Assembly: GCA_016720835.1 (NCBI GenBank)
Contig: JADKJW010000002.1
Location: 199,036 to 263,035 of the forward strand
DNA from: Ignavibacteria bacterium
GTDB taxonomy: Bacteria > Bacteroidota > Ignavibacteria > SZUA-365
DNA length: 64,000 bases
Direction: 5' to 3'
The stretch's first letter is position 1; each line of letters starts with the position of its first letter. The position numbers and the translations under genes are program-made. A model generated the notes under the pieces. The model was not told where the DNA came from. It ran no database searches and saw only the letters and a list, made by a program, of their open reading frames with translations. Shown here in pieces: positions 7,643 to 39,800 of this stretch.

Positions 7643-10600
7643 TTACTTGCTGAGAATCATCTTCATCGAGGCGACGAAGTTCCCGGCCTGGAGTCGATAG
7701 GTGTAAATGCCGGAGGGGAGTTGGCGCGCGCCTTCGTTGCTGTTGAATTCCACAGCGTAGATGCCCGCTTCCTGCCTGCCGTTGACGAGTGTTGCGACCT
7801 CACTGCCAAGCAGCGAGTAGACCTTGAGTGAAACCAGGGAGGCTTCCGCAAGACTGTACTGAATGGTCGTGGACGGGTTGAAGGGGTTCGGATAGTTCTG
7901 CGACAGCACGAAACCCTCTCCGAGTTCGAGAGGCGTCTGCACGTCCGTCGTGCCCGCGGTGGTGAAGGTCCACGTGTAGTCCGCTTCCATCGCGTTGCCG
8001 GCCAGGTCCTTGACGCCGGACGTGACCGTCGCGGTGTAGAGGGTGGCCGCGTCCAGCGGATTCGTCGGAGTGAATGTCGCCGTCACGCCGAGATAGGAGA
8101 CGGTGCCCGCCACCGGCGTCGCGCCGTGCTTCAGCATGAACGTGTACAGCGTGATCGTGGAGGGATCCATCGGCTCACAGAAGGTCGCGGAGACCGTGGT
8201 GTTGATCGAAACGCCTGTCGCAAGGTTCGTCGGGTCCGTGCAGCATACCTTCGGATGGGTCGTGTCCGCAACAGGACCGGTGAAGAAGCTCCACACGTAA
8301 TCGAGGAGCATGTGGTTGCCGGCGAGGTCGCGCACTCCGGTGGTGATCCGTCCCGTATACAGGGTATTCGGGGTGAGCGGACTTGCCGGTGTGAAACTCG
8401 CCGTGGTGCCGGCGTAGGTGACGGTACCCGGAACGGGTGCGGTCCCCTGCGTCAGCGTGAACGTCGTGTTGTCGATGGACGCAGGGTTCATCGGCTCGCT
8501 GAAGGTTGCCGTGATGATCTTTCCGGGCGGAACACCGGTAGCTGCATGAGGCGGGTCCGTGGAAATGACGAACGGCGCCGTGTTGTCGAGAGCCTGGCCG
8601 GTGGTAAAGGTCCACACGTAGTTGCTCACCATGGGATTGCCGGCGAGATCTTCGACTCCCGTGGTGATCGTTGCGGTGTAGACGGTGTTGGGTTCGAGAT
8701 TGTTGAACGGCACAAAGGTCGCCGTCGTTCCCGCGTACGTCACAACGCCGCCGACGGGAGTCGTCCCGCTTCTCAGGACGAAGGTGGCGGTGCTGATGGT
8801 CAACGGATCCATCGCCTCGCTGAACGTCGCCGTGATGATTTTATTGAGAACGACACCCGTGGCCGCGTTCGCGGGGTCGGTGGAGATCACGAACGGCGCG
8901 GTGACGTCCGGTGCAATACCGGTGGTGAAACTCCAGGTGTAGGAGGTCACCATGGCATTGCCGGCAAGATCCTCGACGCCGTTGGTGACGGTGGCGGTGT
9001 ACGTGGTATTGGCCGCCAGATCATCGTACGGATCAAACGTCGCCGTGACGCCGGCATAGGTCACCGTGCCCGCGACCTGCGTTTGCCCCCGCATGAGGAT
9101 GAAGGTGGTCGTGTTGATGGTGAACGGATCCATCCGTTCACTGAAGGTTGCCGCGATTTTCTTGTTGATCGCCACGCCGATGGCAGCACTCGCGGGGTCC
9201 GTTGAGATGATGTATGGCGCAGTGATGTCGGGGGCCGATCCGGTGGTAAAGCTCCATGTATAGGGGGCGAGCATCGCGTTCCCCGCAAGGTCCTTGACCC
9301 CTGTGGTGATGGTGGCGGTGTAGGTGGTATTGTTTGCGAGCGGGATGAGCGGGGCGAAGGTCGCCGTGATGCCCGCATAGGTGACGGTCCCCGCAATGGG
9401 GGTGTTGCCCTGCTTGAGCAGGAACGTCGCGGTGCTTATGGTGTGCGGATCCATGGCTTCGCTGAACGTGGCGGCGATCTTTTTGTTGATCTGCACGAAC
9501 GTCGCTCCGTTCCATGGGTCCGTCGAACTGACGGTCGGATGAATGCTGTCCGGAGCCGCGCCTGTCCTGAACCGCCACGTGTACGGGAGCAGCATCGTGT
9601 TGCCGGCGAGATCTTCCACCAGGGTGGTGATCGTGGCCGTGTACAGCGTGTTGGGCGCGAGGAAGTTGATCGGCGTGAAGGTCGCGATCCTTCCGCCGTA
9701 GGTCACCGTGCCCGGCACCGGGGTGGCACCCTGCGCGAGCAGGAAGCTGAGCACGCTGATCGTGGTCGGATCCATCACTTCGCTGAATGTCGCGGTGATC
9801 TTGATGTTGACGCCCACGCCTGCCGCGCCGTTGAAGGGATAGGTGGAGGTCACGGTCGGATGCGTGGTGTCAGGCCCGTTCCCGGTGTTGAAGAACCAGA
9901 CATAATTCTCGAGCATCGCCGTCCCCGAGAGATCCTTGACGCCGTTGGTGATGGTGGCGGTGTACACCGTACTGCCGACGAGCGGAGATGAGGGGGTAAA
10001 GGTTGCGGTGAGACCGGCATAGGTCACGGTGCCCGCGACGGGAAGCGACCCCACCTTCAGAGTAAATGTGGACGTCGTAATCGTGGTCGGATCCATCGTT
10101 TCACTGAACGTCGCCGCGATCTTCTTGTTGATTGCCACCCCGACAGCGGCATTCACCGGGTCGGTGGAACTGACGGTGGGCGGGATGGTGTCCGGTGCCG
10201 CGCCGGTGACGAAACGCCAGGTGTACGCCACGAGCATCGAGTTGCCGGCAAGATCCTTGACGCCGGTCGTGATGGTGCCCGTGAAAAGCGTGTTCGGGAG
10301 AAGAATGCCTGAAGGCGTGAACACGGCCTTCGCGCCGGAGAGCGTCACCGTGCCCGGAACGGGAGTCGTCCCATGCACGAGCAGGAACGTGCTGGTGTTG
10401 ATTGTCGCGGGATCCATCAGCTCGCTGAAAATGGCGGCCACCCTGGTGTTGATCGGCACATCGGTCGATCCGTTGGCGGGATCCGTGGCGAGGACGATCG
10501 GTCGGATGGTGTCCGGAGCGGGAGCGGTCGTGAAGCTCCACGTGTACGTGTTGAGCAGCGCATTCCCCGCGAGATCCTTGACGCCGGTGGTAATCGTGCC

Positions 10601-11941
10601 GGTGTACACGGCGCTGTAGGCGAGGAAACTCTGGGGCTTGAAGGATGCCGTCGCGCCGCTTCTGGAAACGGTGCCCGGCACGAGCGTCGTGCCCTGCTTG
10701 AACGATATCGTCGTCGTATTGATGGTGGTGGAATCCATCGCCTCACTGAAGAGGATCGTGATGAGCTTGTTTTTCGCCACCCCGACGGCATTGTTCGGCG
10801 GATCGGTGGAAATCACCGTGGGCCTGATGCTGTCCGGCGCGGCACCGGTGGTGAAACTCCAGACGTAATTGTTCGCGATCGAAAGACCCGCGAGATCCTT
10901 GGCGCCGGTGGTGATCGTGCCGGTGTAAACGGTGTTGTAGGCGAGGAAGCTCGTCGGATCGAACGTCGCATTTGCGCCGTTGCGCGCCACGACACCGGTG
11001 ATCGGTGTCGCCCCCTGCTTCAGGGTGAACGTGGTTGTGTTGATGGTCGTCGAATCCATCGCTTCGCTGAAGACAACGCCGATGACCTTGTTTTTCAAGA
11101 CGCCGATGGCGTTGTTCGCGGGGTCGGTCGAGATCACCGTGGGACGGGTGGTGTCGGACGGAATCACGACGGTGACGGAGTTTCCATCCATCGTCACGGC
11201 GGTCTGTGCAAGCGCACGGCCGTCCAACGATGCGCCGGTGCTCATTAAAATGGCGGTCTGACACAGAATGATGCCTTTCATCTGGGAGGTCGTGCCGAGC
11301 GTCACCTGCCCGGCGACCTGCCAGAAGATATTGGACGATTGTGCGCCGCCCGTGAGGGTGACGATCGCGCTGTTGGCGATGGTGAGGTTCTGCGCGATCT
11401 GGAAAATCCACACGTCGCTCGGACCGCCCGAGAGCGTGACACCCGCGGCGGACACCAGAACGCCCGTCCCCCACTTGTACAAGCCGGGCGTCAGCGTCTT
11501 CCCGGTGATATCACCGGCATACAATTCCGTGTAGTTCGGCGTCGGCCTGCCGGCCGCGTCGGTGTAGGCGGTTTCCATGTCGCCGATCGCCGTCGTCATT
11601 TTCGTCGGCGTTGGAGCGGCATAGTTCGCTGCGTAGACTTTCCCTGCCACCAGGGAGGATGTCGAAAACGTTCCGGACGGATCCATGATCAGTCCGAAAC
11701 CCGTGATGTACGTCGCGGCGGCCGGACTGATCCCGATATCACCGGTAATCATGGTTGTTCCCGTGGCGGAGATTCCGGTCTTTGCAAGAGCTACGAAATC
11801 CCCCGCGGTGCCGATGTTCACAATCGCGGGCGATTGCGACAGGGCGGTGAACGGCGCCATCAACACGAGCGCCAGCAATGCTCCGGCGAGCCGCGCCCAC
11901 AGGCGCGGTCTCGAGGAGGGTTGTTTTGTATCGGTAATCAT
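7643..11941 (-). CDS. giant secreted adhesin-like protein: N-terminal DUF3494 (ice-binding-like) domain + ~11 tandem Ig-like (Big/SbsA-type) repeats + T9SS C-terminal sorting domain (1432 aa)
   Basis: The real start is the ATG at 11941 (MITDTKQPSSRPRLWARLAGALLALVLMAPFTALSQSP), with GGAGAGAG upstream. The N-domain VNIGTAGDFVALAKTGISATGTTMITGDIGISPAAATYITGF matches the DUF3494/ice-binding pattern. There are ~11 repeats of ~100 aa (..PTVISTDPxNxAxGVxxNxxIxxxFSExMDxxTIxxxTFxL..GxVxYxGxTATFxPxxxLxxNTxYTxTITTGVxDLAGN..). The C-terminus QNYPNPFNPSTTIQYSL...SMKMILSK is a T9SS CTD. Confidence 0.75.
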   Translation of the reverse strand: MITDTKQPSSRPRLWARLAGALLALVLMAPFTALSQSPAIVNIGTAGDFVALAKTGISATGTTMITGDIGISPAAATYITGFGLIMDPSGTFSTSSLVAGKVYAANYAAPTPTKMTTAIGDMETAYTDAAGRPTPNYTELYAGDITGKTLTPGLYKWGTGVLVSAAGVTLSGGPSDVWIFQIAQNLTIANSAIVTLTGGAQSSNIFWQVAGQVTLGTTSQMKGIILCQTAILMSTGASLDGRALAQTAVTMDGNSVTVVIPSDTTRPTVISTDPANNAIGVLKNKVIGVVFSEAMDSTTINTTTFTLKQGATPITGVVARNGANATFDPTSFLAYNTVYTGTITTGAKDLAGLSIANNYVWSFTTGAAPDSIRPTVISTDPPNNAVGVAKNKLITILFSEAMDSTTINTTTISFKQGTTLVPGTVSRSGATASFKPQSFLAYSAVYTGTITTGVKDLAGNALLNTYTWSFTTAPAPDTIRPIVLATDPANGSTDVPINTRVAAIFSELMDPATINTSTFLLVHGTTPVPGTVTLSGAKAVFTPSGILLPNTLFTGTITTGVKDLAGNSMLVAYTWRFVTGAAPDTIPPTVSSTDPVNAAVGVAINKKIAATFSETMDPTTITTSTFTLKVGSLPVAGTVTYAGLTATFTPSSPLVGSTVYTATITNGVKDLSGTAMLENYVWFFNTGNGPDTTHPTVTSTYPFNGAAGVGVNIKITATFSEVMDPTTISVLSFLLAQGATPVPGTVTYGGRIATFTPINFLAPNTLYTATITTLVEDLAGNTMLLPYTWRFRTGAAPDSIHPTVSSTDPWNGATFVQINKKIAATFSEAMDPHTISTATFLLKQGNTPIAGTVTYAGITATFAPLIPLANNTTYTATITTGVKDLAGNAMLAPYTWSFTTGSAPDITAPYIISTDPASAAIGVAINKKIAATFSERMDPFTINTTTFILMRGQTQVAGTVTYAGVTATFDPYDDLAANTTYTATVTNGVEDLAGNAMVTSYTWSFTTGIAPDVTAPFVISTDPANAATGVVLNKIITATFSEAMDPLTISTATFVLRSGTTPVGGVVTYAGTTATFVPFNNLEPNTVYTATITTGVEDLAGNPMVSNYVWTFTTGQALDNTAPFVISTDPPHAATGVPPGKIITATFSEPMNPASIDNTTFTLTQGTAPVPGTVTYAGTTASFTPASPLTPNTLYTGRITTGVRDLAGNHMLLDYVWSFFTGPVADTTHPKVCCTDPTNLATGVSINTTVSATFCEPMDPSTITLYTFMLKHGATPVAGTVSYLGVTATFTPTNPLDAATLYTATVTSGVKDLAGNAMEADYTWTFTTAGTTDVQTPLELGEGFVLSQNYPNPFNPSTTIQYSLAEASLVSLKVYSLLGSEVATLVNGRQEAGIYAVEFNSNEGARQLPSGIYTYRLQAGNFVASMKMILSK

Positions 11942-14947: not shown

Positions 14948-14988
14948 GCATTACACAACTCCATGAATACATTACAGCATTCACACAT
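14948..14988 (+). promoter_or_regulatory. conserved 41-bp element, copy 1 (two ~13-bp direct repeats TTACA(C/G)(A/C)A(C/T)TC spaced 21 bp apart, followed by CACAT)
   Basis: gcATTACAcAACTCcatgaatacATTACAgCATTCaCACAT. It is 35/41 identical to copy 2 and about 30/41 identical to copy 3. It lies in a gene-free 530-bp intergenic region, 129 bp upstream of the minus-strand gene start at 14812. Confidence 0.5.
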
Positions 14989-16203: not shown

Positions 16204-16326
16204 GGTCGGTACGCCTGTGTTTCTGATGATACGGTGAGGAAGAGGCATATGATGATCTGTACGCCGTCGACAGTCCGTCATGATACACGATCACGATACA
16301 AACATATGTTTCGCCGATGCTGAAAG

Positions 16327-16367
16327 TGTTACACAACTCTGTATTTCCGTTACACCATTCTCACATT
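16327..16367 (+). promoter_or_regulatory. conserved 41-bp element, copy 3
   Basis: gtGTTACAcAACTCtgtatttccGTTACAcCATTCtCACAT. It is 115 bp upstream of the minus-strand lipoprotein gene start (16203), in a 430-bp gene-free region. Confidence 0.45.
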
Positions 16368-16603
16368 TTCGCGGAGTGCCGACGCTCAGCGTGCTGCGCA
16401 CGCTCTTGTGTGTTCGGTGCCCCAGCACCGGTCATGGCGCTCCCCTGCATCTCGATGGCGCACCGGCTCCACGATCGTCCATCCACTGCAGGATGCGCGA
16501 TGGCAGAGAACACCTCCCCTGCGTGACACAGGTGGGACGTGATCACATCATCATGTTGACTGGAAGGAACGACGGAAAGATGCGAAGACGACCGCGACGA
16601 TCT

Positions 16604-16640
16604 GTTACACGATTCCCCGATTCTTTTGCATGATTCACAC
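16604..16640 (+). promoter_or_regulatory. partial fourth copy of the element, overlapping the stop codon of the AraC-family gene
   Basis: gTTACAcgATTCcccgattcttttgcatgATTCACAC. The two half-repeats are 26 bp apart rather than 21. Confidence 0.3.
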
Positions 16641-17195
16641 CTTCTCGAGCACCGTCCTACGCTTGTGCTTCAGATGCTTGAAAAACGTCGGCGTCAATCC
16701 GGTGATCTTCTTGAATTGATTCGAGAGATGCGCGACGCTGCTGTAATTCAGGAGGTAGGAGATCTGGGTCAGCGTCAGCTCATCGTAGAGAAGAAGCTCC
16801 TTCACCCGCTCGATCTTGTGCGCGATGATGAAATGTTCGATGGTCACCCCGGTCGCCTCGGAGAACAGGTTGGCGAGGTAGGTGTAATCGTGGTTCATTT
16901 TTTCGGAGATGTAGACGGAATTCTTCGTCCGCGGCAGCTCATCCGTGTAGTGGACCATTTCCACGATGACGTTCTTGATTTTCTCGATGAGCATGGCCTT
17001 GCGATCGTCCATCAATTCCAGTCCGGATTTCAGGAGCGCCAGCCTCAGTGCGTCCCGATTCCCTTCCGATATCTGTCCGCGGACATCCACCTCGCCCAGG
17101 TCGATGACGCCGTAGGTCAGTCCGAGCTTGTCCAGCTCGGCCTTGACCACCATTTTGCAACGGATACTGACCATGTATTTGATGTAGATTTTCAT
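16635..17195 (-). CDS. AraC/XylS-family transcriptional regulator (187 aa) with a short N-terminal domain
   Basis: ATG at 17195 (MKIYIKYMVSIRCKMVV...). The C-terminal HTH_18 signature is TIEHFIIAHKIERVKELLLYDELTLTQISYLLNYSSVAHLSNQFKKITGLTPTFF. The upstream part of the track ORF is off-frame junk. Confidence 0.7.
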   Translation of the reverse strand: MKIYIKYMVSIRCKMVVKAELDKLGLTYGVIDLGEVDVRGQISEGNRDALRLALLKSGLELMDDRKAMLIEKIKNVIVEMVHYTDELPRTKNSVYISEKMNHDYTYLANLFSEATGVTIEHFIIAHKIERVKELLLYDELTLTQISYLLNYSSVAHLSNQFKKITGLTPTFFKHLKHKRRTVLEKV

Positions 17196-21974: not shown

Positions 21975-22015
21975 GCATTACAGAACTCCGGGAATTCGTT
22001 ACAGCATTCACACAT
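21975..22015 (+). promoter_or_regulatory. conserved 41-bp element, copy 2
   Basis: gcATTACAgAACTCcgggaattcGTTACAgCATTCaCACAT. It is 202 bp upstream of the plus-strand GT4 gene ATG (22217), in a 540-bp region with no confident gene. Confidence 0.5.
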
Positions 22016-22216
22016 TGAAACCATGGTGCAGGAATTTTTCCCGCGAAACGATATCGGTACAACCCAGCATGAAATGCTGTACATTACATGCACGGTTGCC
22101 GTTTGATATTCGCGGAAGGATCGTCATGCCGGGACCTCCCGTGTGGGGACGTTCCCTCGCCGCGCATCGTTCGCACCGCGCGCCATTTCCCTGCCATCTG
22201 CCGGAGGACTGTTGTG

Positions 22217-24499
22217 ATGGATTCCACGCTGCCGGAACGCATCGCCTTCCTCGGCGGATACGTGCCACGACTCTGCGGTATCGCGACGTTCACACACGAC
22301 GTGTGCGAGGCCGTCGCCACCGCGGCCCCCGGGGCTCTCTGCTTCGCCGGCGCCATGAACGACCGCCTCGACGCGTACGAGTATCCGCCGCGTGTCCGCT
22401 TCGAACTGGATCAGAAGGATCTCGATTCCTACAGGCGCGCCGCGGACTTTCTGAACTTCAGCAACGCGGACGTGCTCTGCGTGCAGCACGAGTTCGGCAT
22501 TTACGGCGGTCCCGCCGGCAGCCATCTCCTCGCCCTGCTCAAGGAAGTGCGCATGCCCGTGGTGACGACGCTGCACACCATTCTGCGCACACCGGACCCG
22601 ATCCAGCGCTCGGTGATGGATGAGGTCCTCCGGCGCAGCGACCGCGTGATCGTGATGGCGCGCAAGGGCGCCGACATCCTTCGCGAGACGTACGGCGTCG
22701 CGGACAGCAAGGTGGACATCATTCCGCACGGCATTCCGGACATGCCGTTCATCGAGTCGCGCTACTACAAGCAGCAGTTCGGCGTCGAGGGACGCATGGT
22801 CCTCCTCACCTTCGGGCTGCTCGGCCCGGGGAAAGGCATCGAGTACGTCATCGAAGCCCTCCCGGATATCGTACAACGGCATCCGAATATCGTCTACCTA
22901 GTCCTGGGCGCCACCCATCCGCATCTCGTCGCGCAGGAGGGCGAGACCTACCGTCTCGGGCTCGAGCGCCTGGCGGAGGACCGCGGCGTCAAGGATCACG
23001 TCATCTTCTACAACCGCTTCGTGTCGATCGACGACCTGAAGGAATTCATCGGCGCGACGGACATCTACCTCACCCCGTACCTGAATGAGGCCCAGATCAC
23101 GTCGGGAACCCTCGCGTACGTGTTCGGCGCGGGCAAAGCCGTGGTGTCCACACCCTACTGGCACGCGCAGGAGCTGCTCGCCGGGGACCGGGGCATCCTG
23201 GTGCCGTTCCGGAACTCCGCCGCCATCGCGGAGGGGGTCTGCGCATACCTGGACGACCCCGCCCGCATGCAGGAAACGCGCGTGAAGGCGCACGATCTCG
23301 GTCGCGACATGATCTGGCCCGCCGTGGCGCAGCGCTTCCTCGAGTCCTTCCAGCGCGCGCGCACGGAGCGCAGGGCGCAGCCCCGCTCGGCGTTCGCCGG
23401 GTGGACGCTCGCGAGCCGTCCCACGGATCTGCCCCCGCTGCGGCTCGATCACATCATCCGCATGAGCGACGGCACCGGCATGCTGCAGCACGCCACGTTC
23501 AACGTCCCGAACTTCGATGAAGGGTACTGCACCGACGACAACGCGCGGGCGTTCATCCTGTGCATCATGCTCGAGGAACTCGGCGGCCGCCCGCCGACGG
23601 AAAATCTCGATCACCTCACCACCAGCTATCTCGCCTTCCTGTCCGCCGCCCTGAATCGCGAGACCGGCCGCTTCCGCAACTTCATGAGCCACGCGCGGCA
23701 GTGGCTGGAAGATTCGGGCAGCGAAGACAGCCATGCGCGCGCCCTCTGGGCAGCCGGGACCGGCGCGGGACGCTCGCACAACCAGGGGCACCGGCGCCTG
23801 TGCGCGCAACTTTTCGATCGCGGTCTGTCCGCCGTGGAATCGTTCTCTTCTCCGCGCGCATGGGCCTTCACGCTGCTGGGCGTCCATGAATATCTGCACA
23901 GTTTCCCGGGGCATCCGGTCGTCGAGGCCGCGCGCATCTCGCTCACCGACAGACTCCTGGAACTCTGGAACGGCTGCGCGACGGAGCACTGGCCGTGGTT
24001 CGAATCCAGCGCCACCTACGACAATGCCCGCATCTGCCAGGCCCTGATCCTCAGCGGTCAGCGAATGCCCAATGCCGACGCCGTCGAGATCGGTCTGAAA
24101 TCCCTCGGGTGGCTGGTCTCCGTGCAGAAGACGCGCGAAGGGCATTTCAGGCCCATCGGGAGCAATGGGTTTTACGTGCGGGACGGCGCGCATGCGGACT
24201 TCGATCAGCAGCCAGTGGAAGCGCAGGCGATGGTGGCCGCGTGCCTCGAAGCCTTTCGCGCCACGCAGGACGACTTCTGGATGCGCGAAGCCAAGCGGGC
24301 GTTCGAGTGGTTCCTCGGACGCAACGATCTCGGCTGGCCGCTCTACGACAGCAGCAACGGCGGGTGCGGGGACGGCTTGCACCACGATCGCGTCAACGAA
24401 AATCAGGGCGCGGAATCGACCCTCGCCTTCCACCTCGCGCTGGCGGAAATGAACTTCGCGAAGCACATCTTCGCGCCGATCACGAGTGTGGTCCCATGA
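22217..24499 (+). CDS. family-4 (GT-B) glycosyltransferase with ~370-aa C-terminal alpha-helical extension (760 aa)
   Basis: ATG at 22217 with GGAGGA RBS (MDSTLPERIAFLGGYVPRLCGIATFTHDV...). The GT4 core is HEFGIYGG...VLLTFGLLGPGKGIEY...GATDIYLTPY...AYVFGAGKAVVSTP. The extension (..DEGYCTDDNARAFILCIM..WPWFESSATYDNARICQALIL..) looks like a six-hairpin-type glycosidase-like domain (tentative). The antisense ORF 22898..24466 is junk. Confidence 0.7.
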   Translation: MDSTLPERIAFLGGYVPRLCGIATFTHDVCEAVATAAPGALCFAGAMNDRLDAYEYPPRVRFELDQKDLDSYRRAADFLNFSNADVLCVQHEFGIYGGPAGSHLLALLKEVRMPVVTTLHTILRTPDPIQRSVMDEVLRRSDRVIVMARKGADILRETYGVADSKVDIIPHGIPDMPFIESRYYKQQFGVEGRMVLLTFGLLGPGKGIEYVIEALPDIVQRHPNIVYLVLGATHPHLVAQEGETYRLGLERLAEDRGVKDHVIFYNRFVSIDDLKEFIGATDIYLTPYLNEAQITSGTLAYVFGAGKAVVSTPYWHAQELLAGDRGILVPFRNSAAIAEGVCAYLDDPARMQETRVKAHDLGRDMIWPAVAQRFLESFQRARTERRAQPRSAFAGWTLASRPTDLPPLRLDHIIRMSDGTGMLQHATFNVPNFDEGYCTDDNARAFILCIMLEELGGRPPTENLDHLTTSYLAFLSAALNRETGRFRNFMSHARQWLEDSGSEDSHARALWAAGTGAGRSHNQGHRRLCAQLFDRGLSAVESFSSPRAWAFTLLGVHEYLHSFPGHPVVEAARISLTDRLLELWNGCATEHWPWFESSATYDNARICQALILSGQRMPNADAVEIGLKSLGWLVSVQKTREGHFRPIGSNGFYVRDGAHADFDQQPVEAQAMVAACLEAFRATQDDFWMREAKRAFEWFLGRNDLGWPLYDSSNGGCGDGLHHDRVNENQGAESTLAFHLALAEMNFAKHIFAPITSVVP

Positions 24500-25959
24500 G
24501 CTCCATCGCCATGCGCCGCCATGAAATGACGCTTGTCCCCGAGAGCGCCCGCGTCATCATCCGTCCGTTCATCCCGTCCTCCGCGCACCGCGTCACGACG
24601 ATCATCGGCCGGGCGCTGGCCCTGAGCGAGGACGACGCCGCGCGCGACCTGGAAGCCATGCTGAAGGAGTTCGAGTCCCGCCACTTCGATCTCGAGTCGC
24701 TGCTGCTCGCGAATTACGAACGCATGCTCCCGCAGATTTTCACCAACCGTCCCCTCTCCCGGCCACGAATGCTTCTCATCGGGGCGCTGTTCTCCGGCGA
24801 GTACGCGGTGGAATCGGCCGCGCTGTTCAATCCGTCCATCGTCCCGCATCCCGACCAGAGCGGCGTGCCCGAAGGCAGTCTGCGTTTCATCATGAGTTTG
24901 CGCGCCACGGGCGAAGGGCACATTTCTTCGGTGGAGTTCCGCGCCGGTCTCATCACTCCCGATGCGGGCATCCGTCTGGATCCCGTCTCCCGCTACGTCG
25001 CCCTGCCGATCATCGACCTGAATCCCGGGTACCAGAAGACGACATTCATCGTCAAGCTGCATGAGATGGGATTCGACAACCGCGTCTCCGCCGCCGTGAT
25101 GGAACCTCTCGGGGACCACTTCAGCCTGACCGAATTGAACCGGAGCGCGCTCCGCGTGCGGCGCGGGACACGACCCGTCACGGAGGAACTCAAGAGCACG
25201 ATCCGCTCCATCCGGCTGCTCGCCGATTCCAACTACGAGATGGAGTTCGCGCCGCAGCTCGCGATGAGCGAGCGCATCATCTTCCCCGTCTCCGCCAACG
25301 AGAGCAACGGCATCGAGGACGCGCGCTTCGTCCGTTTCTGCGAGGAAGACGGGTCGGCGATGTACTACGCCACGTACACGGCGTACAACGGACGCACCAT
25401 CCTGCCGCAGCTCATCGAGACGCAGGATTTCCTCCACTTCCGCGTGCTCACGCTCAACGGCGCGGCGGTGCAGAACAAGGGCATGGCGCTGTTCCCGCGG
25501 CGCATCGACGGCAACTACGCGATGCTCTCGCGGCAGGACGACGAGAACCTGTCCATCATGTTTTCGGACAATCCCCACTTCTGGAATGACGCGACGGTGC
25601 TCATGCGGCCCGCGGAGATGTGGGAGTCCGTGAAGATCGGGAACTGCGGCTCGCCCATCGAAACCGACGCGGGCTGGCTGGTGATCACGCACGGCGTCGG
25701 TCCGATGCGAAAGTACTGCATCGGCGCCGCGCTGCTCGATCTGCAGGACCCGACGAAGGTCATCGGACGCTTGCGCGAACCGCTGCTGACGCCTGAGGGC
25801 AGCGGGCGGGAGGGCTACGTGCCCAACGTGGTGTACAGCTGCGGTTCAATCGTGCATGGGCCCAATCTCATCCTCCCCTTCGCGATGAGCGACCGCGCGA
25901 CCGCTATCGCGACGGTGTCGCTGGACGCGTTGCTCGCCAAGTTGCTAGGGCGGACGTAG
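24496..25959 (+). CDS. GH130-family (beta-mannoside phosphorylase/glycosidase, DUF377) protein with ~200-aa N-terminal extension (487 aa)
   Basis: Start at ATG 24496, overlapping the GT stop (cATGAg, 4-nt overlap). The C-terminal region IFPVSANESNGIEDARFVRF..YYATYTAYNG..GYVPNVVYSCGSI matches the GH130 five-bladed propeller. The track ORF start (23995) is off-frame junk. Confidence 0.65.
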   Translation: MSSIAMRRHEMTLVPESARVIIRPFIPSSAHRVTTIIGRALALSEDDAARDLEAMLKEFESRHFDLESLLLANYERMLPQIFTNRPLSRPRMLLIGALFSGEYAVESAALFNPSIVPHPDQSGVPEGSLRFIMSLRATGEGHISSVEFRAGLITPDAGIRLDPVSRYVALPIIDLNPGYQKTTFIVKLHEMGFDNRVSAAVMEPLGDHFSLTELNRSALRVRRGTRPVTEELKSTIRSIRLLADSNYEMEFAPQLAMSERIIFPVSANESNGIEDARFVRFCEEDGSAMYYATYTAYNGRTILPQLIETQDFLHFRVLTLNGAAVQNKGMALFPRRIDGNYAMLSRQDDENLSIMFSDNPHFWNDATVLMRPAEMWESVKIGNCGSPIETDAGWLVITHGVGPMRKYCIGAALLDLQDPTKVIGRLREPLLTPEGSGREGYVPNVVYSCGSIVHGPNLILPFAMSDRATAIATVSLDALLAKLLGRT

Positions 25960-26101: not shown

Positions 26102-26716
26102 CTATGATATGAAGAAATCGACGATCCCGGTCTCGAGCGAATACTCGGCGCCGATCACGAGGAGGTCCTCGTGCAGGATCAGCTGCTCGAGCACTTCCGA
26201 TCCGTGCCGCAGGTGGTTGACCGAGGCGCGGATGTTGGCGCGGACGGCGTGCGCGACCAGCGCGTCGTGATCGTGATCGAGCTCCGTGTCCAGGAGTTCC
26301 TCGACCGACGGGCGGATGCGGTCGACGATGGAACGCAGGTTCTTCGACTGTTTCTCCGTCGGCCGGTGCAGTTCCTCCAGCGTCGCGAGGATGGCCCCGC
26401 AGCGGGAATGGCCCAGCACCACGACGAGCGGCGTGCCGAAACGCTCGGCGGCGAACTCGACGCTCCCGACCTGGGAGGGCGCGACGATGTTTCCCGCGAC
26501 GCGGATGACGAACAGGTCGCCCAATCCCTGATCGAAGATGATCTCCACCGGGACGCGCGAATCGGAACATCCGAGGATCACCGCGAAGGGTTCCTGCCCG
26601 TCGACGAGGTCGTCGGGCCGTGTCGGGTTTACGAGCGTGTCGCGGTTCCGCACGTCGGAGACGAAACGGTGATTGCCCGCTTTCAGGCGCTCGAGGGCTT
26701 CGAAGGCTGGGATCAT
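26102..26716 (-). CDS. beta-class carbonic anhydrase (204 aa)
   Basis: ATG at 26716 (MIPAFEALERLKAGNHRFV...). Zinc-ligand motifs CSDSRV and HSRCGA are present. The ATG overlaps the TGA of the upstream methyltransferase gene (cATGAtc). Confidence 0.75.
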   Translation of the reverse strand: MIPAFEALERLKAGNHRFVSDVRNRDTLVNPTRPDDLVDGQEPFAVILGCSDSRVPVEIIFDQGLGDLFVIRVAGNIVAPSQVGSVEFAAERFGTPLVVVLGHSRCGAILATLEELHRPTEKQSKNLRSIVDRIRPSVEELLDTELDHDHDALVAHAVRANIRASVNHLRHGSEVLEQLILHEDLLVIGAEYSLETGIVDFFIS

Positions 26717-27399
26717 TGGCGTCGTGCCCGTTCCGTACTCTGCCCGGGGGGATGCCCCACGTCCTTGACGCAGAGGATTGCGGCAGCATTTTCGGGATGC
26801 GCCCGGCACCACAGGTGTTGCGTGCAGAAGGATATCACGCCCCATGCCTTCCGGGGCCGGAAACGCAGCTGGTGGCCCTCCGAGCGAAGGCATTGAAGCC
26901 CGACAAGGCCGATGACGCGGTACCCCAGCGCACGCATCTCCTGCGGCGTCCATCCGGACAGATGCTCCTGGAAGTCGCCCTCCACGATTCCTGCCTGGGG
27001 AAGAAACCCGTTGGGAGTGAAGACCACCACCTTGCAGACTGCAAGAGTTTCCAGAGTCCGGAGGAACGCGAGTCCGTCGTCTTTGGAAAAATGTTCGAGC
27101 ACGTCCAGCGCGACGCAGGCATCGAACTGTCGCTCTCGAAAGTACCGACCGAGTTCCCGCGCATCAAGCAGATGGAACTCGTCGTGCGTCCCTGCTTCTC
27201 TGGCCTGTACGATATCGGGGTGATACGCGTCGGCTCCGACCAGCCATTCGCAGGAGAGGAAGCGCAACGGCGACCGTGCCCCGCACCCCACGTCAAGCAC
27301 GGAGGCGCAGTCGGCGAGCTCGCGCGCGAGTTCGATTGCACAGTCGCGGGAGGACGACAACGGCCGCGTTTCCTTCGCGATGTTGAATGTGGTTCTCAT
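26713..27399 (-). CDS. class I SAM-dependent methyltransferase (228 aa)
   Basis: Motif I VLDVGCGARSPLRF and motif post-I ALDVLEHF. It is translationally coupled to the carbonic anhydrase gene. Confidence 0.65.
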   Translation of the reverse strand: MRTTFNIAKETRPLSSSRDCAIELARELADCASVLDVGCGARSPLRFLSCEWLVGADAYHPDIVQAREAGTHDEFHLLDARELGRYFRERQFDACVALDVLEHFSKDDGLAFLRTLETLAVCKVVVFTPNGFLPQAGIVEGDFQEHLSGWTPQEMRALGYRVIGLVGLQCLRSEGHQLRFRPRKAWGVISFCTQHLWCRAHPENAAAILCVKDVGHPPGQSTERARRQ

Positions 27400-28133: not shown

Positions 28134-28196
28134 CAAATTCCGGATTCCGGATTCCGGATTCTGAATTCTGAATTCTGAATTCTGAATTCTGAATTC
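28134..28196 (+). repeat. heptanucleotide tandem repeat array: 1x CAAATTC, 3x CGGATTC, 5x TGAATTC (9 units, 63 bp)
   Basis: Read directly from the sequence: ..caaattc cggattc cggattc cggattc tgaattc tgaattc tgaattc tgaattc tgaattc ttcc. It lies between the stop of gene 28202..29983 and the cupin gene, 145-207 bp upstream of the cupin ATG. Confidence 0.85.
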
Positions 28197-28201
28197 TTCC
28201 C

Positions 28202-29983
28202 CTACGGCCTTCCGAACACGACCACGTGAATACTGGCATCGTGGAGTGTTCCGGAGAGATCGTACGTCTTGATCTCGCACGCGTCGGCCTGGCTCGACGA
28301 GATGACGCATATGTACGGCGTGCCGGAACTGATCACGGTCGCCACCGGCAGCGCGTCATACGAGCTGGAAAACGTGTTCTTGTACACGACGCGGTAGCGG
28401 CCGGTGCTCACACGCGACAGCGTGCAGCCAAACGCACTGAGTTGTGTCCCGGCAGCATTGATGCTCCCCCAGGCGGCACAGGTGTTGTCCTTGTACATGC
28501 CGCCCTCGACGGGCGTCGCGCTGGCGCCGAGCGAGTTCGTCGCCTCGAAATGCCGCGCCTCGCTCGTGCCGTTCGCCCAGACGTCGCCGCCGCGATTGAC
28601 GGAGTGCACCAGGGTGGGATTTCCCAGTTTCATGATGGGGGCCGTGGCGCTGCTGTTGGTGCTGACCGCGTTGATCGTCGGTACCACGCCGTCCGATACG
28701 GCATTGATCGCCGATCCGCCCGTCGCTTCCGCGTCGATGGCGTGAGCGCCTGTCGAGGTACTTTTCGCGAGTACGCGCACGGCGGGCTGCGTGGCGGAGG
28801 TGCTCTCCGAATGCAGGTAGGCGGCCCGACCGTTGCCATCCTGCCGCACTTCGATGCCGTCGCCTGCGGCGTTGTTGTCGATGTTGATGCCGTCGCCCGT
28901 GCCGCTGTGCGTCATGGCAATGCCGCCGCCCGTGCCGCCGGTGGTGTTGATCTCGAGAATGTCGCCGGTGCTGGAGGCCGTCTTCGTGAACCGCGCGACC
29001 GGGCCGTTGCCGCTGTTGTTCGCGGTGATGGCCGCGCTGACATCGCTGCTGTTCGACGCCTGCACGGCATTGCCGTTCCCCGCGAACGCGCTGAAGGCAT
29101 CGGCGCTCGTGGACGTGCCGTTGTTCGACGCGGTAAGCGCCGCCTTGGTCGTCGCCGCGTTGTCGATGCCGAACACGCCCGCGCTACCCGTGCCGGTGTT
29201 CTCGATCTCGAAGGCGATGCCGGTCGACGCGGCGGTGCCCTTGTACGGCAACGTGAATCCGGGAGACGCCGCGGCCGCGATCGTGATCGTGTGCGCGGTG
29301 GCATCGGGCGTGATCGTGATGTTGCTGCCCGCGACGAGGCCGATATCACCCCCGTCGTTCTTGACGCCCCCGACGCTCGAGACGATGTTCGGGATGATTT
29401 TCGCGGCGCTGATCGTCGCGTCCTGAATTTTCGCGCCGGTGACCGCGCCGTCCGCGATGCGGGTCGCGCTGAACGGGCCGAGCACATCACCCTGCAGGAG
29501 CTGCGTGCCCGATGCCGAGATCTGCAGCGTGCCGCCCGTGTTCGTGACGGTGATCCCCGTGCCCGCCGTCACTTCCGTTTCCTTGAGCATCGCCGGATCG
29601 AGCACGCGCTCCGCGACGCGGGAGGCGAAGCTGTAGGCCGACGTCGTGAGTCTCACCCGCGGCGAGTATTCCGAACCTCCCGCGAGCGCGATGCCGAGAT
29701 ACAGCGGCTTGTCGAATGCCAGGGCGATCGGATTTCCCGAGCCAAGGACGACGGAAAACAATCCGCTGCGCACCTGCACGGAGGACTGGGTTTCCGTCCA
29801 CAGCGACGGACCGCCGGAGGCGTTTTCGTACAGCGAGAATGTGAACGCAAACGTGCCGTCGGAAACGGGCGTCCCTGTAATATCCGTCAGGTAACCCTGG
29901 TAACTCATGAGCGACGGAACGGGCTGCGCAACAGCGGTTGCGGCGATCGCGCAGAGGATCGCAGCGAGATACACGTGCTTCAT
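28202..29983 (-). CDS. secreted tail-fiber-like repeat protein (593 aa), no T9SS CTD
   Basis: ATG at 29983 with GAGGAGGG RBS. Signal MKHVYLAAILCAIAATAVAQ. The N-terminal module SYQGYLTDITGTPVSDGTFAFTFSLYENASGGPSLWTETQSSVQVRSGLFSVVLG resembles the conserved N-terminal repeat of Bacteroidota 'tail fiber domain-containing' proteins. It has a long G/T/A/S/N-rich low-complexity middle and a C-terminal globular domain. Confidence 0.5.
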   Translation of the reverse strand: MKHVYLAAILCAIAATAVAQPVPSLMSYQGYLTDITGTPVSDGTFAFTFSLYENASGGPSLWTETQSSVQVRSGLFSVVLGSGNPIALAFDKPLYLGIALAGGSEYSPRVRLTTSAYSFASRVAERVLDPAMLKETEVTAGTGITVTNTGGTLQISASGTQLLQGDVLGPFSATRIADGAVTGAKIQDATISAAKIIPNIVSSVGGVKNDGGDIGLVAGSNITITPDATAHTITIAAAASPGFTLPYKGTAASTGIAFEIENTGTGSAGVFGIDNAATTKAALTASNNGTSTSADAFSAFAGNGNAVQASNSSDVSAAITANNSGNGPVARFTKTASSTGDILEINTTGGTGGGIAMTHSGTGDGINIDNNAAGDGIEVRQDGNGRAAYLHSESTSATQPAVRVLAKSTSTGAHAIDAEATGGSAINAVSDGVVPTINAVSTNSSATAPIMKLGNPTLVHSVNRGGDVWANGTSEARHFEATNSLGASATPVEGGMYKDNTCAAWGSINAAGTQLSAFGCTLSRVSTGRYRVVYKNTFSSSYDALPVATVISSGTPYICVISSSQADACEIKTYDLSGTLHDASIHVVVFGRP

Positions 29984-30212
29984 GGAACCCTCCTCTTGAA
30001 AGGTCGAAGGCAGCACGCAGTCCGGCTCCCGCAGAACAGTCGCATCAACAACCCGGACTGCAGCCCGATCCATGCGAGAACCCGCACGCGTGTCTGCCCG
30101 TCACGAAATAAAATTATGCGGACAAGATACTCAGGAAATATTTTTGGTGAAAACAACGCCGGGAGCCGACGCGCGACGGCGCGCCACGGCCTCGCTGATG
30201 TGTGTGGGACGT

Positions 30213-30958: not shown

Positions 30959-31083
30959 GTTGCTCCTCGCACTGCATGCTAACAAATGTCCGCCTGATTG
31001 ACAACAGCGTGCCTTCCGGGTGGCGACCCTCGGAAATAGGTGAGATGCGAGATTCTCACTGCGAACATCGCATATCCGATATC

Positions 31084-31132
31084 TGGATTCTGAATTCTGA
31101 ATTCTGAATTCTGAATTCTGGATTCTGTATTC
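31084..31132 (+). repeat. second heptanucleotide tandem repeat array: TGGATTC, 4x TGAATTC, TGGATTC, TGTATTC (7 units, 49 bp)
   Basis: Read directly from the sequence. It has the same unit and orientation as the array at 28134. It is 126-174 bp upstream of the ATG of gene 30422..30958 and just downstream of the terminator of the large oxidoreductase gene. Confidence 0.85.
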
Positions 31133-38231: not shown

Positions 38232-39800
38232 ATGAAGCACCTCATGGTCCTTTTTTCGGTCCTGTGCGGCATTTCCGCGCAGGAGGGTCTCGCCCAGAAA
38301 GCCGGGGACGGTATTTTCGGCGGCATCCAGGTCCACACCATCAACCTGCGTTTCCCGCGGACGGATTATTGGGACTCCCTGCTCTTCTATTACAACCGCG
38401 GCGACGAGCAGTGCATCCTCGCGCATGCCGTGATCGACGGCATCGCCATCGACAGCATCGGTGTCCGTTTCAAGGGCAATTCCTCCTTCAACCATCCGAA
38501 CAACAAGAAATCCTTCCGTCTGTCCTTCGATGAGTTCAGGGACGACGGACGCTGGGACGCCTTGAAGGGCGTGCACCTCAACAACATGTGGGGCGACCCG
38601 TCCTTCATGCGCGAGAAGCTGTACCTCGATTTCTGCAGCGCCGCGGGCATCGCCGCGCCGCGAGCCAACTACGCGCGCCTCTCGATCAACGACACCCTCT
38701 TCGCCTTCTACTCGCTCGTGGAGCACGTGGACAAGACCTTCCTCGACACGCGCTTTTCGAACAAGGCCGGCAACCTCTTCAAGGCGGTGGACGGCATCGG
38801 CGCGGGCGACTCGCTCATCTCCGATTTCGCATGGCTCGGCCCGGACACTGCGCGTTATCTCCCCCGCTACGAACTGAAAACGGACGGATCCCTCACCGCC
38901 TGGCCGCAACTCATCGGTTTCATCGACACACTCGCGAACTCCTCCGACAAGGCCGCAACCATGCAGCGCGACGTCGACCTCCCCGCGCTCGACAAGGCGA
39001 TCGCAGCGGACATCCTCTTCGCGAACCTCGATTCCTACATCAACAGCGGACGGAACTTCTACGCGTATTTCCATTCGAAGACGGGCAAACTCTCCTGGAT
39101 CATCTGGGATGCGGGCCTCAGCTTCGGCGCCTACGGCGGCGGCGTTTCGACGCCCGAAAATCTCAACGTCACCTACCTGATCAACGCCGCGAACCGTCCA
39201 CTCGTCGGTACGATTTTCAGCGTGCCCGCTCTGGCGAACGAGTACCTCGTGACGCTGTGCGCGCTCCATTCCTCCTCCTTCACGGCGGCGCGCATGTTCC
39301 CGCACATCGACAGCGTCGCGGCCCTCATCCGGCCGCACATCTCCGCGGATCAGCGAAAGATGTACACCAACCAGCAGTTCGAGACGAACATTTCGAACGA
39401 CGTGACGGTCGGCGGCTCGCGCAAGCCGGGATTGAAGTCGTTTCTGACGGCCCGCGCCGCGAGCGTGCAGGCGCAGCTCACCGCGCTCGGCATTTCCTGC
39501 GTCACAGATGCGGAGCGTGCTGACGCCCCGGTGGCGATGCAGGTCGCGCTCGCGCAGAACTATCCCAATCCCTGCGCGCGGCGAACGACGATCAGCTACA
39601 CCCTGCCAGCGAGCGGACTCGCGACGCTCACGGTCTACGACGCGCTCGGCCGTGCCGCTGCAACACTCGTCGACCGCGCGGAGGACGCCGGAACGCACAA
39701 CGCCGCCTTCGATGCGAGCGCGCTGCCCGGCGGCATGTACCACTACGAACTCGTGCAGGGTCGGTCGCGCGCCGCGCGCACCCTCCTGGTACACCACTGA
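38232..39800 (+). CDS. CotH-family (spore-coat-protein-H-like kinase fold) secreted protein with T9SS C-terminal domain (522 aa)
   Basis: ATG at 38232 (MKHLMVLFSVLCGISAQEG signal). CotH-like segments (..NNKKSFRLSFDEF..; ..LDSYINSGRNFYAYFHSKTGKLSWIIWDAGLSFG..). The CTD is ..LAQNYPNPCARRTTISYTLPASG...ARTLLVHH. The antisense ORF 38211..39863 is junk. Confidence 0.65.
   Translation: MKHLMVLFSVLCGISAQEGLAQKAGDGIFGGIQVHTINLRFPRTDYWDSLLFYYNRGDEQCILAHAVIDGIAIDSIGVRFKGNSSFNHPNNKKSFRLSFDEFRDDGRWDALKGVHLNNMWGDPSFMREKLYLDFCSAAGIAAPRANYARLSINDTLFAFYSLVEHVDKTFLDTRFSNKAGNLFKAVDGIGAGDSLISDFAWLGPDTARYLPRYELKTDGSLTAWPQLIGFIDTLANSSDKAATMQRDVDLPALDKAIAADILFANLDSYINSGRNFYAYFHSKTGKLSWIIWDAGLSFGAYGGGVSTPENLNVTYLINAANRPLVGTIFSVPALANEYLVTLCALHSSSFTAARMFPHIDSVAALIRPHISADQRKMYTNQQFETNISNDVTVGGSRKPGLKSFLTARAASVQAQLTALGISCVTDAERADAPVAMQVALAQNYPNPCARRTTISYTLPASGLATLTVYDALGRAAATLVDRAEDAGTHNAAFDASALPGGMYHYELVQGRSRAARTLLVHH

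Follow-up and report, generated by a model that had tools for sequence, protein, structure and literature searches.

What does a cell do with a glycosyltransferase and a phosphorylase-like protein whose genes overlap by a few nucleotides and recur together in distant bacteria? The question is raised by two adjacent genes in a stretch of 64,000 nucleotides (nt) from an Ignavibacteria bacterium (GenBank assembly GCA_016720835.1, contig JADKJW010000002.1, positions 199,036 to 263,035), referred to below as the window. Gene 1 encodes a glycosyltransferase (GT) of family GT4 with a large C-terminal extension, and gene 2 encodes a protein of glycoside hydrolase (GH) family 130 (Table 1). An original prediction, made from the sequence of the window, held that the two genes are translationally coupled and that their products synthesize and recycle a β-mannosyl or related storage or compatible-solute glycan. 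The observation itself is confirmed, being neither an artefact nor something already explained, while the interpretation placed on it is supported in part.

Both open reading frames (ORFs) lie exactly where they had been placed. The ATG at 22217 was chosen as the start of gene 1 over a longer ORF beginning at 22088 because its homologues, hundreds of which are 759 to 761 amino acids (aa) long, begin with MDSxLP. At the junction, which reads GTCCCATGAGC, the two genes share the tetranucleotide ATGA. The protein encoded by gene 2 is identical to NCBI entry MBL0174344.1, named 'glycoside hydrolase family 130 protein', from an Ignavibacteria metagenome-assembled genome, and the product of gene 1 carries the JGI label 'glycosyltransferase involved in cell wall biosynthesis'. 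Judged by eye, with no prediction run, neither N-terminus resembles a signal peptide; nor is a membrane-type hydrophobic stretch evident in either protein, again by eye and with no topology prediction run.

Strong evidence that the two genes form a unit comes from a sample of 80 genome loci, 79 of which are informative, the other having no room upstream. A gene for the fused glycosyltransferase lies directly upstream of the GH130 gene in every one of the 79, and the manner of joining is nearly as constant: ATGA in 68 loci, TGATG in 7 (an overlap in 75 of 79 altogether) and a gap of 11-26 nt in the remaining 4. These loci belong to the Acidobacteriota, Verrucomicrobiota, Spirochaetota, Planctomycetota, Hydrogenedentota, Nitrospirota and Myxococcota, and the window adds the Ignavibacteria, for at least eight phyla in all. 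Identity to the window proteins across the loci is 67-80% for gene 2 and 58-82% for gene 1. Each protein has thousands of homologues, the nearest (74-96% identical for gene 2, 79-84% for gene 1) coming from Holophagae/Geothrix, 'Spirochaetes' and 'Deltaproteobacteria'. Identity so high between phyla implies horizontal spread under strong constraint. The pair stays linked down to 36-42% identity, and it is present in cultured strains, namely Geothrix spp., Holophaga foetida DSM 6591, Luteolibacter sp. Populi and Brevifollis gellanilyticus.

Clustering of the flanking ORFs in the 80 loci revealed no third conserved gene. In these loci the pair has no transporter, regulator, secreted glycosidase or guanylyltransferase as a constant neighbor, and no flippase, polymerase, polyprenyl-phosphate transferase or other envelope gene is conserved nearby. 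Individual lineages do have characteristic neighbors. In 12 Verrucomicrobiaceae loci (L036, L037, L043, L046, L047, L052-L054, L056, L061, L066 and L073) the GH130 gene is followed on the same strand by a gene of about 343 aa combining a Zn-ribbon with a Peptidase_Mx (HExxH) domain, and a TatD-like gene lies beside the cassette in a few Geothrix loci only. The unit is a free-standing, translationally coupled two-gene cassette found in changing contexts. No description of such a fused GT4-barrel/GH130 pair was found in the literature.

Gene 2 belongs to GH130 by every criterion that could be tested. Residues 257-480 match the Glyco_hydro_130 model (PF04041) with 109.4 bits against a cut-off of 26 (2.3e-31), and a profile comparison of the propeller part gave 3.8e-37. 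The C-terminal 220 aa align with Teth514_1788 (9fj8, 1e-33), Teth514_1789 (7fip, 1e-29), Lin0857 and Uhgb_MS. An AlphaFold2 (AF2) model, with a predicted local distance difference test (pLDDT) score of 72 and a predicted template modeling (pTM) score of 0.73, has the protein folding as a predicted five-bladed β-propeller; a Foldseek search with it retrieved 35 GH130 chains, the best being 9fj8 (E 1e-15, template modeling (TM) score to target 0.69). Membership in GT108 was considered and ruled out, since the GH130 chains score at E 1e-15 to 1e-10 and the Leishmania structure 2b4w at 6.9e-5.

The residues expected of an active enzyme are in place. The catalytic aspartate, D275 in a G-x-E/Y-D-x-R motif, corresponds to D137 of Uhgb_MS and is invariant in 37 homologues. 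By alignment E274 and K328, the latter within an NK motif (N327-K328), are the counterparts of Uhgb_MS E136 and K184, a pair stated to be the determinant of β-1,2 specificity (PMC12814180). Basic phosphate-binding residues are what separates phosphorylases from the hydrolases of GH130_3 (PMC4599007, PMC12814180), and in an equivalence by alignment alone K328, R346, K380 and H399 match the phosphate binders K184, R202, R242 and H261 of Uhgb_MS; Teth514_1789 likewise has a lysine at the K380 position. The signature of β-1,2-mannoside-specific GH130 enzymes (GH130_4/GH130_6), as read from these residues, appears complete, consisting of the glutamate before the catalytic aspartate, the lysine of the NK motif and the arginine of the +1 subsite. 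Gene 2 is therefore predicted, from its sequence, to keep an intact site of the β-1,2-mannoside phosphorylase type, with the corresponding activity. Its L2 loop is short, as in Teth514_1788, and enzymes of this short-L2 class accept GDP-mannose too (PMC12814180). The NCBIfam equivalog models for β-1,2-mannobiose phosphorylases, NF050092 and NF052550, give 148.7 and 147.5 bits, below their cut-offs of 550 and 450, and gene 2 is not an orthologue of the characterized enzymes.

Gene 2 had also been credited with an N-terminal extension of about 200 aa. Some 190 additional residues are indeed present, but they do not form a single block, being divided between a helical N-terminal extension of about 100 aa and an insertion of about 90 aa that follows blade 1 and lies between R136 and E274. 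In the AF2 model, helices at residues 36-98 precede β-strands at 114-180, a second set of helices at 181-245 and the remainder of the propeller at 247-475, and Foldseek aligns about 390 columns to GH130 chains of 298 aa. A weak hhalign match (E 0.0023) equates residues 102-139 with residues 18-46 of the Teth514_1788 family and pairs F111-N112 with F27-N28, and R136 with the invariant R43. The first blade of short GH130 proteins that partner the same modules in other layouts (see below) aligns with residues ~105-150 of gene 2; these short partners lack the N-terminal extension, and the insertion is missing from those of 327 and 369 aa. Residues 1-260 have no Pfam match at E<10, and a PDB sequence search with residues 1-265 returned no matches. 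In GH130_4 enzymes a 48-aa lid restricts substrates to di- and trisaccharides, its position having been described for Uhgb_MS and Lin0857 (PMC12814180). From the alignments and the model, we infer that the gene 2 insertion may be an enlarged lid over the active site, setting a specific short acceptor.

The glycosyltransferase assignment of gene 1 also holds at the level of family, and in neither gene did the profile searches upset the original classification. Residues 49-353 match four GT4-type Pfam models, all above their curated cut-offs: Glyco_transf_4 (PF13439, 49.2 bits, cut-off 28.5), Glyco_trans_4_4 (PF13579, 33.1 bits, cut-off 29.7), Glycos_transf_1 (PF00534, 53.3 bits, cut-off 26.4) and Glyco_trans_1_4 (PF13692, 58.4 bits, cut-off 27). 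Its characterized or structurally determined relatives are all distant, MshA (1e-12) and PimA (3e-10) in a family profile search, and no NCBIfam model comes near its cut-off on this domain. The donor site is another matter. In a remote alignment of hidden Markov models (HMMs) with PimA and MshA (E ~1e-12), the G-R...K motif that contacts the donor phosphate keeps its lysine (K206) and has an invariant leucine, L201, in place of its arginine; within the EX7E motif the first glutamate, E291, is mostly present, and the second is replaced by the region L299-Y301. The donor is uncertain because that arginine and that second glutamate are absent. The lineage is otherwise extremely conserved, with motifs such as PRxCGIATFT, QHEFGIxGG, TFGLxGPGKGIE, TPYLNxxQxTSGTLAY and STPY, and the alignment suggests an atypical donor site, which we flag rather than assert.

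The C-terminal extension of gene 1 had been thought compatible with an (α/α)6 glycosidase-like fold, and the structural evidence agrees. Pfam finds nothing in residues ~391-760 even at E<10. The AF2 model (pLDDT 67, pTM 0.75) contains 11-12 paired helices, and every Foldseek match to it is an (α/α)6 protein, with TM scores of 0.45-0.58. The best of these is YPO2471 of Yersinia pestis (7tem; E 1.6e-6, TM 0.58), followed by cellobiose 2-epimerases, AGE-family enzymes, D-mannose isomerase and GH76 α-1,6-mannanases. The same 7tem is the sole PDB match at the sequence level (profile E 8e-8), and both proteins contain an N-x-N-x-G-A-E-S motif; unlike the barrel of gene 1, YPO2471 is a putative exported protein of unknown function without a fused glycosyltransferase, and no paper on it was found. 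Similarity to AGE is at the level of the fold only, with 12% identity and no Pfam AGE match at E<10. The barrel has an invariant D440-D441 pair, adjacent aspartates being the catalytic pair of GH76 α-mannanases, and GH76 is among its fold matches; there is no Pfam GH76 match. The barrel falls in the six-hairpin clan and was placed in no defined family.

This family is large. An exhaustive search found 4770 representative clusters, 1079 of them at E≤1e-30, in which the domain occurs either behind GT4 (~750 aa) or as a standalone protein (~360-400 aa, 'hypothetical protein'), with occasional fusions to a BD-FAE esterase (P0323) or a Gfo/Idh/MocA oxidoreductase (P0335). A protein family of several thousand clusters that is without a Pfam model is thereby flagged. 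Among 134 diverse members, about 20 polar or aromatic residues are at least 90% conserved: D418, Q424-H425, D440-D441-N442, R444, N488, R508, R547, E596, N603, D663-Q664-Q665, N703, C717, D719, N727, N729, E733 and several tryptophans. The invariant polar residues assigned to the pocket are D440-D441, E596, D663, D719 and E733. Because of this conservation the barrel is probably catalytic, the pattern being that expected of a sugar-binding catalytic pocket. Beyond the cassette, an SDR gene follows the GT-barrel gene in loci L086 and L087, and ATP-grasp and SDR genes follow the barrel gene in L088 (14481-16271). The oxidoreductase, ATP-grasp and esterase partners of divergent barrels may mean that the substrate is further modified (oxidized, acylated) in some lineages.

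Table 1. Coordinates of the cassette, its domains and the upstream element in the window
Feature	Position	Strand	Basis or remark
Gene 1, 760-aa GT4 glycosyltransferase with C-terminal barrel	22217-24499	+	
GT4-type domain (GT-B, retaining family), gene 1 aa 1-390	22217-23386	+	Pfam GT4 models above cut-off
(α/α)6 six-hairpin barrel, uncharacterized family, gene 1 aa 391-760 and stop	23387-24499	+	AF2, Foldseek
ATGA start/stop overlap	24496-24499	+	Translational coupling; kept in 68 of 79 related loci
Gene 2, 487-aa GH130 protein	24496-25959	+	
N-terminal extension, mostly helical, gene 2 aa 1-100	24496-24795	+	AF2; long GH130 form only
Propeller blade 1 (FNP motif, R136), gene 2 aa ~101-160	24796-24975	+	hhalign, alignment with short GH130
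Insertion, partly helical, at GH130_4 lid-loop position, gene 2 aa ~161-265	24976-25290	+	AF2, alignment
Propeller blades 2-5, catalytic and phosphate-binding residues, gene 2 aa 266-487 and stop	25291-25959	+	Pfam, PDB
41-bp element, TTACA-N16-TTRCA...ATTCWCAC, copy nearest the cassette	21975-22015	+	202 nt upstream of gene 1 ATG
41-bp element, other copies	14948-14988, 16326-16366, 16602-16642	+	Window search

The linkage extends beyond the fused form: the same modules are also linked when they are split or fused in other ways. In one locus (L081) a standalone barrel gene (381 aa) is followed by a GH130 gene (327 aa) and then a GT4 gene (459 aa), and in a member of the Chthonomonadales (L082) a standalone barrel precedes a long GH130 of 484 aa. 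After a divergent fusion with a 36%-identical barrel, locus L084 continues with the N-terminal part of a long GH130 (42% identity). Locus L085 (7001-10369) encodes a 1122-aa protein in which a mannose-6-phosphate-isomerase-like cupin is joined to GT4 and barrel; a GH130 of 369 aa comes next. The isomerase-like domain matches 1qwr (3e-13), and this fusion is a 'Rosetta-stone' link between the module and mannose metabolism.

A further arrangement, in Thermoanaerobacter, connects the cassette to enzymes of proven activity. The gene order there is LacI, ABC (ATP-binding cassette) importer, GH5 mannosidase, GH130, GH130, mannose-1-phosphate guanylyltransferase, GT4, barrel, ATP-grasp and SDR. The GT4 protein (391 aa; L088 12182-13354) is 38% identical to that of the window over the full length of the GT4 domain (E 8e-107) and has the family's signature motifs and the same donor-motif pattern. 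Teth514_1785, a 'hypothetical protein' of 350 aa (L088 13375-14427, L089 13378-14427), is 32% identical to the barrel over its full length (E 5e-67) and can now be assigned to the six-hairpin family, a membership apparently not noted in the literature found. It scores 17.6 against the GH76 cut-off of 25.9 and weakly passes the Pfam cut-offs of GH88, GH127_cat, C5-epim_C and LANC_like. The two GH130 proteins, Teth514_1788 and Teth514_1789, are the best PDB matches of gene 2, and biochemical work has proven them to be β-1,2-mannoside phosphorylases (Chiku et al. 2014, PMC4264767). That study characterized the GH130 enzymes only and proposed a route from mannose-1-phosphate through GDP-mannose to an α-mannosyltransferase; a source of β-1,2-mannan for Thermoanaerobacter was not found (PMC4264767). 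In a transcriptome study, ethanol stress is reported to induce Teth514_1785-1787, described as one operon (PMC3751872). That induction, in homologous genes, is the sole hint found of the storage or compatible-solute role that had been proposed.

From an α-linked activated sugar, a retaining GT4 enzyme produces α-glycosides, whereas GH130 enzymes act on β-mannosides with inversion. Since GT4 is retaining and GH130 is specific for β-mannosides, the two cannot make and break the same bond. The currency shared by the modules would thus have to be a mannose-1-phosphate/GDP-mannose pool or a mixed α/β glycoside, not one linkage. The reading that we tentatively prefer, with a probability of about 0.45, is that the cassette builds and turns over an endogenous soluble mannoside, serving as a reserve or stress protectant, and does so in the cytoplasm as a self-contained system. 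In outline, the target would be a cytoplasmic, mannose-containing glycoside of the cell's own making, on which three catalytic modules would act jointly. The GH130 enzyme would interconvert a short β-mannoside and phosphate with α-mannose-1-phosphate and a free acceptor, possibly using GDP-mannose also, and its enlarged lid would probably limit it to one short, specific acceptor. GT4, most likely drawing on GDP-mannose, would make an α-linked glycoside that is either the acceptor or primer for GH130 or the second linkage of the same molecule, and the barrel would most likely trim, transfer or isomerize this GT4-made glycoside. Domain identities, conserved catalytic residues, strict linkage and coupling, the triad of modules and the kinship with the Thermoanaerobacter cluster are shown, whereas we infer which sugars are involved, which way the flux runs, what the barrel does and what purpose the cassette serves. 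The theme of mannose is supported by the Glu/Lys pair of gene 2, by the phosphomannose-isomerase fusion, and by the neighboring guanylyltransferase and the homology in Thermoanaerobacter.

Several points weigh against this reading. Two canonical nucleotide-sugar-binding signatures, the arginine of G-R...K and the second glutamate of EX7E, are lacking in the GT4 domain, and the substrate of gene 2 is not established because its equivalog scores fall so far below cut-off. The AF2 models are of moderate confidence (pLDDT 67 for the barrel and 72 for gene 2), and what is said of lid and pocket draws on secondary structure and alignments instead of inspected coordinates. To our knowledge no GT4 or barrel member of this family has been biochemically characterized, and we know of no mannoside product from any host organism. 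Finally, the triad in Thermoanaerobacter clusters with an ABC importer, a LacI regulator and a GH5 mannosidase, and so resembles a scavenging pathway.

This last point is the starting place of the main rival explanation, which we consider unlikely. It would make the cassette the core of a catabolic or salvage pathway, in which imported β-1,2-mannosides (from fungal or protist glycans, for example) are phosphorolysed by GH130, the mannose-1-phosphate is converted to GDP-mannose, and the GT4-barrel protein α-mannosylates a component of the cell. Such a scheme follows the published model for Thermoanaerobacter (PMC4264767), where LacI, importer, GH5 mannosidase and guanylyltransferase all accompany the homologues. 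In the 80 loci from other phyla, however, the pair has none of these four functions as a constant neighbor. That the coupling by ATGA is so strict, and that the sequences are near-identical from one phylum to another, suggests a unit sufficient in itself. Nor do these habitats have a known source of β-1,2-mannan, a difficulty that had come up for Thermoanaerobacter too (PMC4264767). Because transporter, regulator and secreted glycosidase do not travel with the cassette, an endogenous mannoside is favored over scavenging.

A different rival, in which GDP-mannose plays no part, starts from the absence of the nucleotide-binding signatures. GT4 would use α-mannose-1-phosphate directly, as GT4 trehalose phosphorylases use a sugar-1-phosphate, so that an inverting GH130 and a retaining GT4 interconvert β- and α-mannosides by way of a mannose-1-phosphate pool. 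The pattern of L201, retained K206 and absent second glutamate, repeated in the Thermoanaerobacter homologue, fits this idea, as does the absence of a guanylyltransferase from the cassette in the 80 loci, and GT4 is known to include a phosphorylase (PMC10913872). On the other hand, in Thermoanaerobacter the guanylyltransferase directly precedes GT4 and is reported to be co-transcribed with it (PMC3751872), the motif calls come from remote HMM alignments (E ~1e-12), and a housekeeping ManC could provide GDP-mannose. On balance we think the relay improbable.

Biosynthesis of an envelope glycan is less credible again. The pair would decorate lipopolysaccharide, exopolysaccharide, an S-layer or a lipoglycan, with GH130 serving as a β-mannosyltransferase; the JGI label of the glycosyltransferase points that way, and β-1,2-type GH130 enzymes do show weak GDP-mannose transferase activity. 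Against it stand the lack of any conserved flippase, polymerase, polyprenyl-phosphate transferase or other envelope gene nearby, a context that differs from lineage to lineage, and two proteins with no membrane-type stretch by eye (no topology prediction having been run). The cycle as literally predicted, with GT4 making and GH130 recycling one β-mannosyl polymer or solute, retains the gene linkage and the mannose theme but is highly improbable, given that a retaining GT4 yields α-products and an inverting GH130 attacks β-mannosides, and that within GH130/GT108 the phosphorylase-type enzyme can itself be the β-1,2-mannan synthase (PMC12814180, PMC10913872).

There is also a more novel reading, for which the odds are long. 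The cassette might be the bacterial counterpart of Leishmania mannogen, a horizontally spread two-gene machine in which GT4 makes an α-linked primer and a β-1,2-mannoside reserve or protectant is built on it in the cytosol; the barrel, together with phosphate-dependent turnover by the lidded GH130, would control chain length or release. If so, the 'orphan' bacterial β-1,2-mannoside phosphorylases would gain an endogenous substrate, and a new catalytic six-hairpin family would be defined. The cassette bears on the physiological role of these bacterial phosphorylases: here a GH130 lineage is tied to GT4 and to a six-hairpin family by fusion, by start/stop overlap and by co-transfer across at least eight phyla. 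Such a tie, with no conserved transporter in the 80 loci, indicates an endogenous substrate, and the cassette offers a compact system in which the matter can be tested.

The surroundings of the cassette within the window are of more local interest. The original prediction drew attention to a conserved 41-bp element at -202. The element is real, with four copies in the window, each made up of a TTACA half-site, a second one 21 nt away and a conserved tail, ATTCWCAC, and the copies are intergenic or 5' of plus-strand ORFs. Its expectation in shuffled sequence is zero, although this figure is circular, the pattern having been derived from the same four copies. No Pfam domain is recognized in the genes that follow the other copies. 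A search upstream of 71 related cassettes turned up no copy, and the element was rejected as a part of the cassette on that ground. Peculiar to this genome, it probably serves its Ignavibacteria host as a promoter or regulator site, possibly as a promoter specific to one regulon or as the site of a response regulator. Rfam gives no match for the 200-nt leader of gene 1, and its folding is unremarkable (z = -0.68). A compositional island was looked for, and the G + C content of the cassette (62-69%; flanks 56-66%) falls inside the range of the window.

Immediately downstream, a β-carbonic anhydrase gene (26102-26953, minus strand) is convergent with the GH130 gene, and one likewise follows a 94%-identical GH130 gene on a JGI contig; this synteny holds inside the lineage and not beyond. 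Elsewhere in the window, a 321-nt unit is repeated in tandem about ten times at 7957-10990; the copies are 61-74% identical and presumably encode a repeat-domain surface protein. Arrays of the heptamer AATTCTG, with 7-9 copies each, lie about 2.9 kb apart at 28136-28197 and 31082-31132, bracketing the region of an ORF at 28202-30073 (minus strand). Segments of the form CAGAACTATCCSAATCC are repeated at 39535-39571, 45643-45679, 50500-50536 and 55644-55680; the motif that they would encode is QNYPNP-like and recalls the C-terminal domains of type IX secretion. Ten 123-nt repeats occupy 40124-41529, and paralogous segments at 42263-42807 and 46241-46797 are 76-79% identical. Together the CAGAACTATCCSAATCC segments, the 123-nt repeats and the paralogous pair suggest a cluster of secreted repeat proteins.

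Among known systems, the closest to the cassette is Teth514_1785-1789 of Thermoanaerobacter sp. X-514, which contains the same three modules. There, however, the modules are separate genes, the GH130 proteins are short (296-302 aa) with neither N-terminal extension nor insertion, and guanylyltransferase, ABC importer, LacI, GH5, ATP-grasp and SDR genes lie alongside; the barrel protein was not recognized as a part of that system. The GH130 β-1,2-mannoside phosphorylases as a group (Teth514_1788/1789, Lin0857, Uhgb_MS) share with gene 2 the propeller, the ED and NK motifs and the Arg/Lys/His phosphate binders, and differ from it in lacking the roughly 190 extra residues and the obligate GT4-barrel partner gene.

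Three further systems resemble the cassette in how they work or how they are built. Leishmania mannogen is a carbohydrate reserve for which GT108 MTPs carry out both synthesis and phosphorolysis of β-1,2-mannosides in the cytosol, in the account of Sernee (2019) given in PMC10913872. As far as that account goes, the analogy is one of operation, with propeller enzymes, a GH130-like active site and GDP-mannose or mannose-1-phosphate as donor; the enzymes are GT108 instead of GH130 and have no GT4 or six-hairpin partner, and no β-1,2-mannan is known from the bacteria considered here. The analogy with the cyclic β-1,2-glucan synthase Cgs is architectural. Its glycosyltransferase is of family GT84. 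In Cgs a glycosyltransferase, a transglycosylating (α/α)6 barrel and a phosphorylase domain serve one cytoplasmic glycan (PMC10834661, PMC10901819), so the three kinds of module are the same. Cgs differs in being one giant membrane protein that works with glucose through the unrelated families GH189 and GH94, and its three domains share one β-1,2 linkage, which is impossible for the cassette. In Bacteroides and Ruminococcus, Senoura (2011, a reference in PMC7660257) is said to have described a pathway joining cellobiose 2-epimerase to a GH130 mannosylglucose phosphorylase. There too the partner of the GH130 phosphorylase is an (α/α)6 barrel, one of the AGE superfamily that can feed it, in a pathway that is β-1,4-specific, catabolic and without GT4; the likeness of the barrels is at fold level only (12% identity, TM 0.5-0.58). 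Seen against these systems, the cassette is an uncharacterized, conserved variant of the partnership between a GH130 phosphorylase and a glycosyltransferase, to which it adds a fused six-hairpin family and a remodeled GH130.

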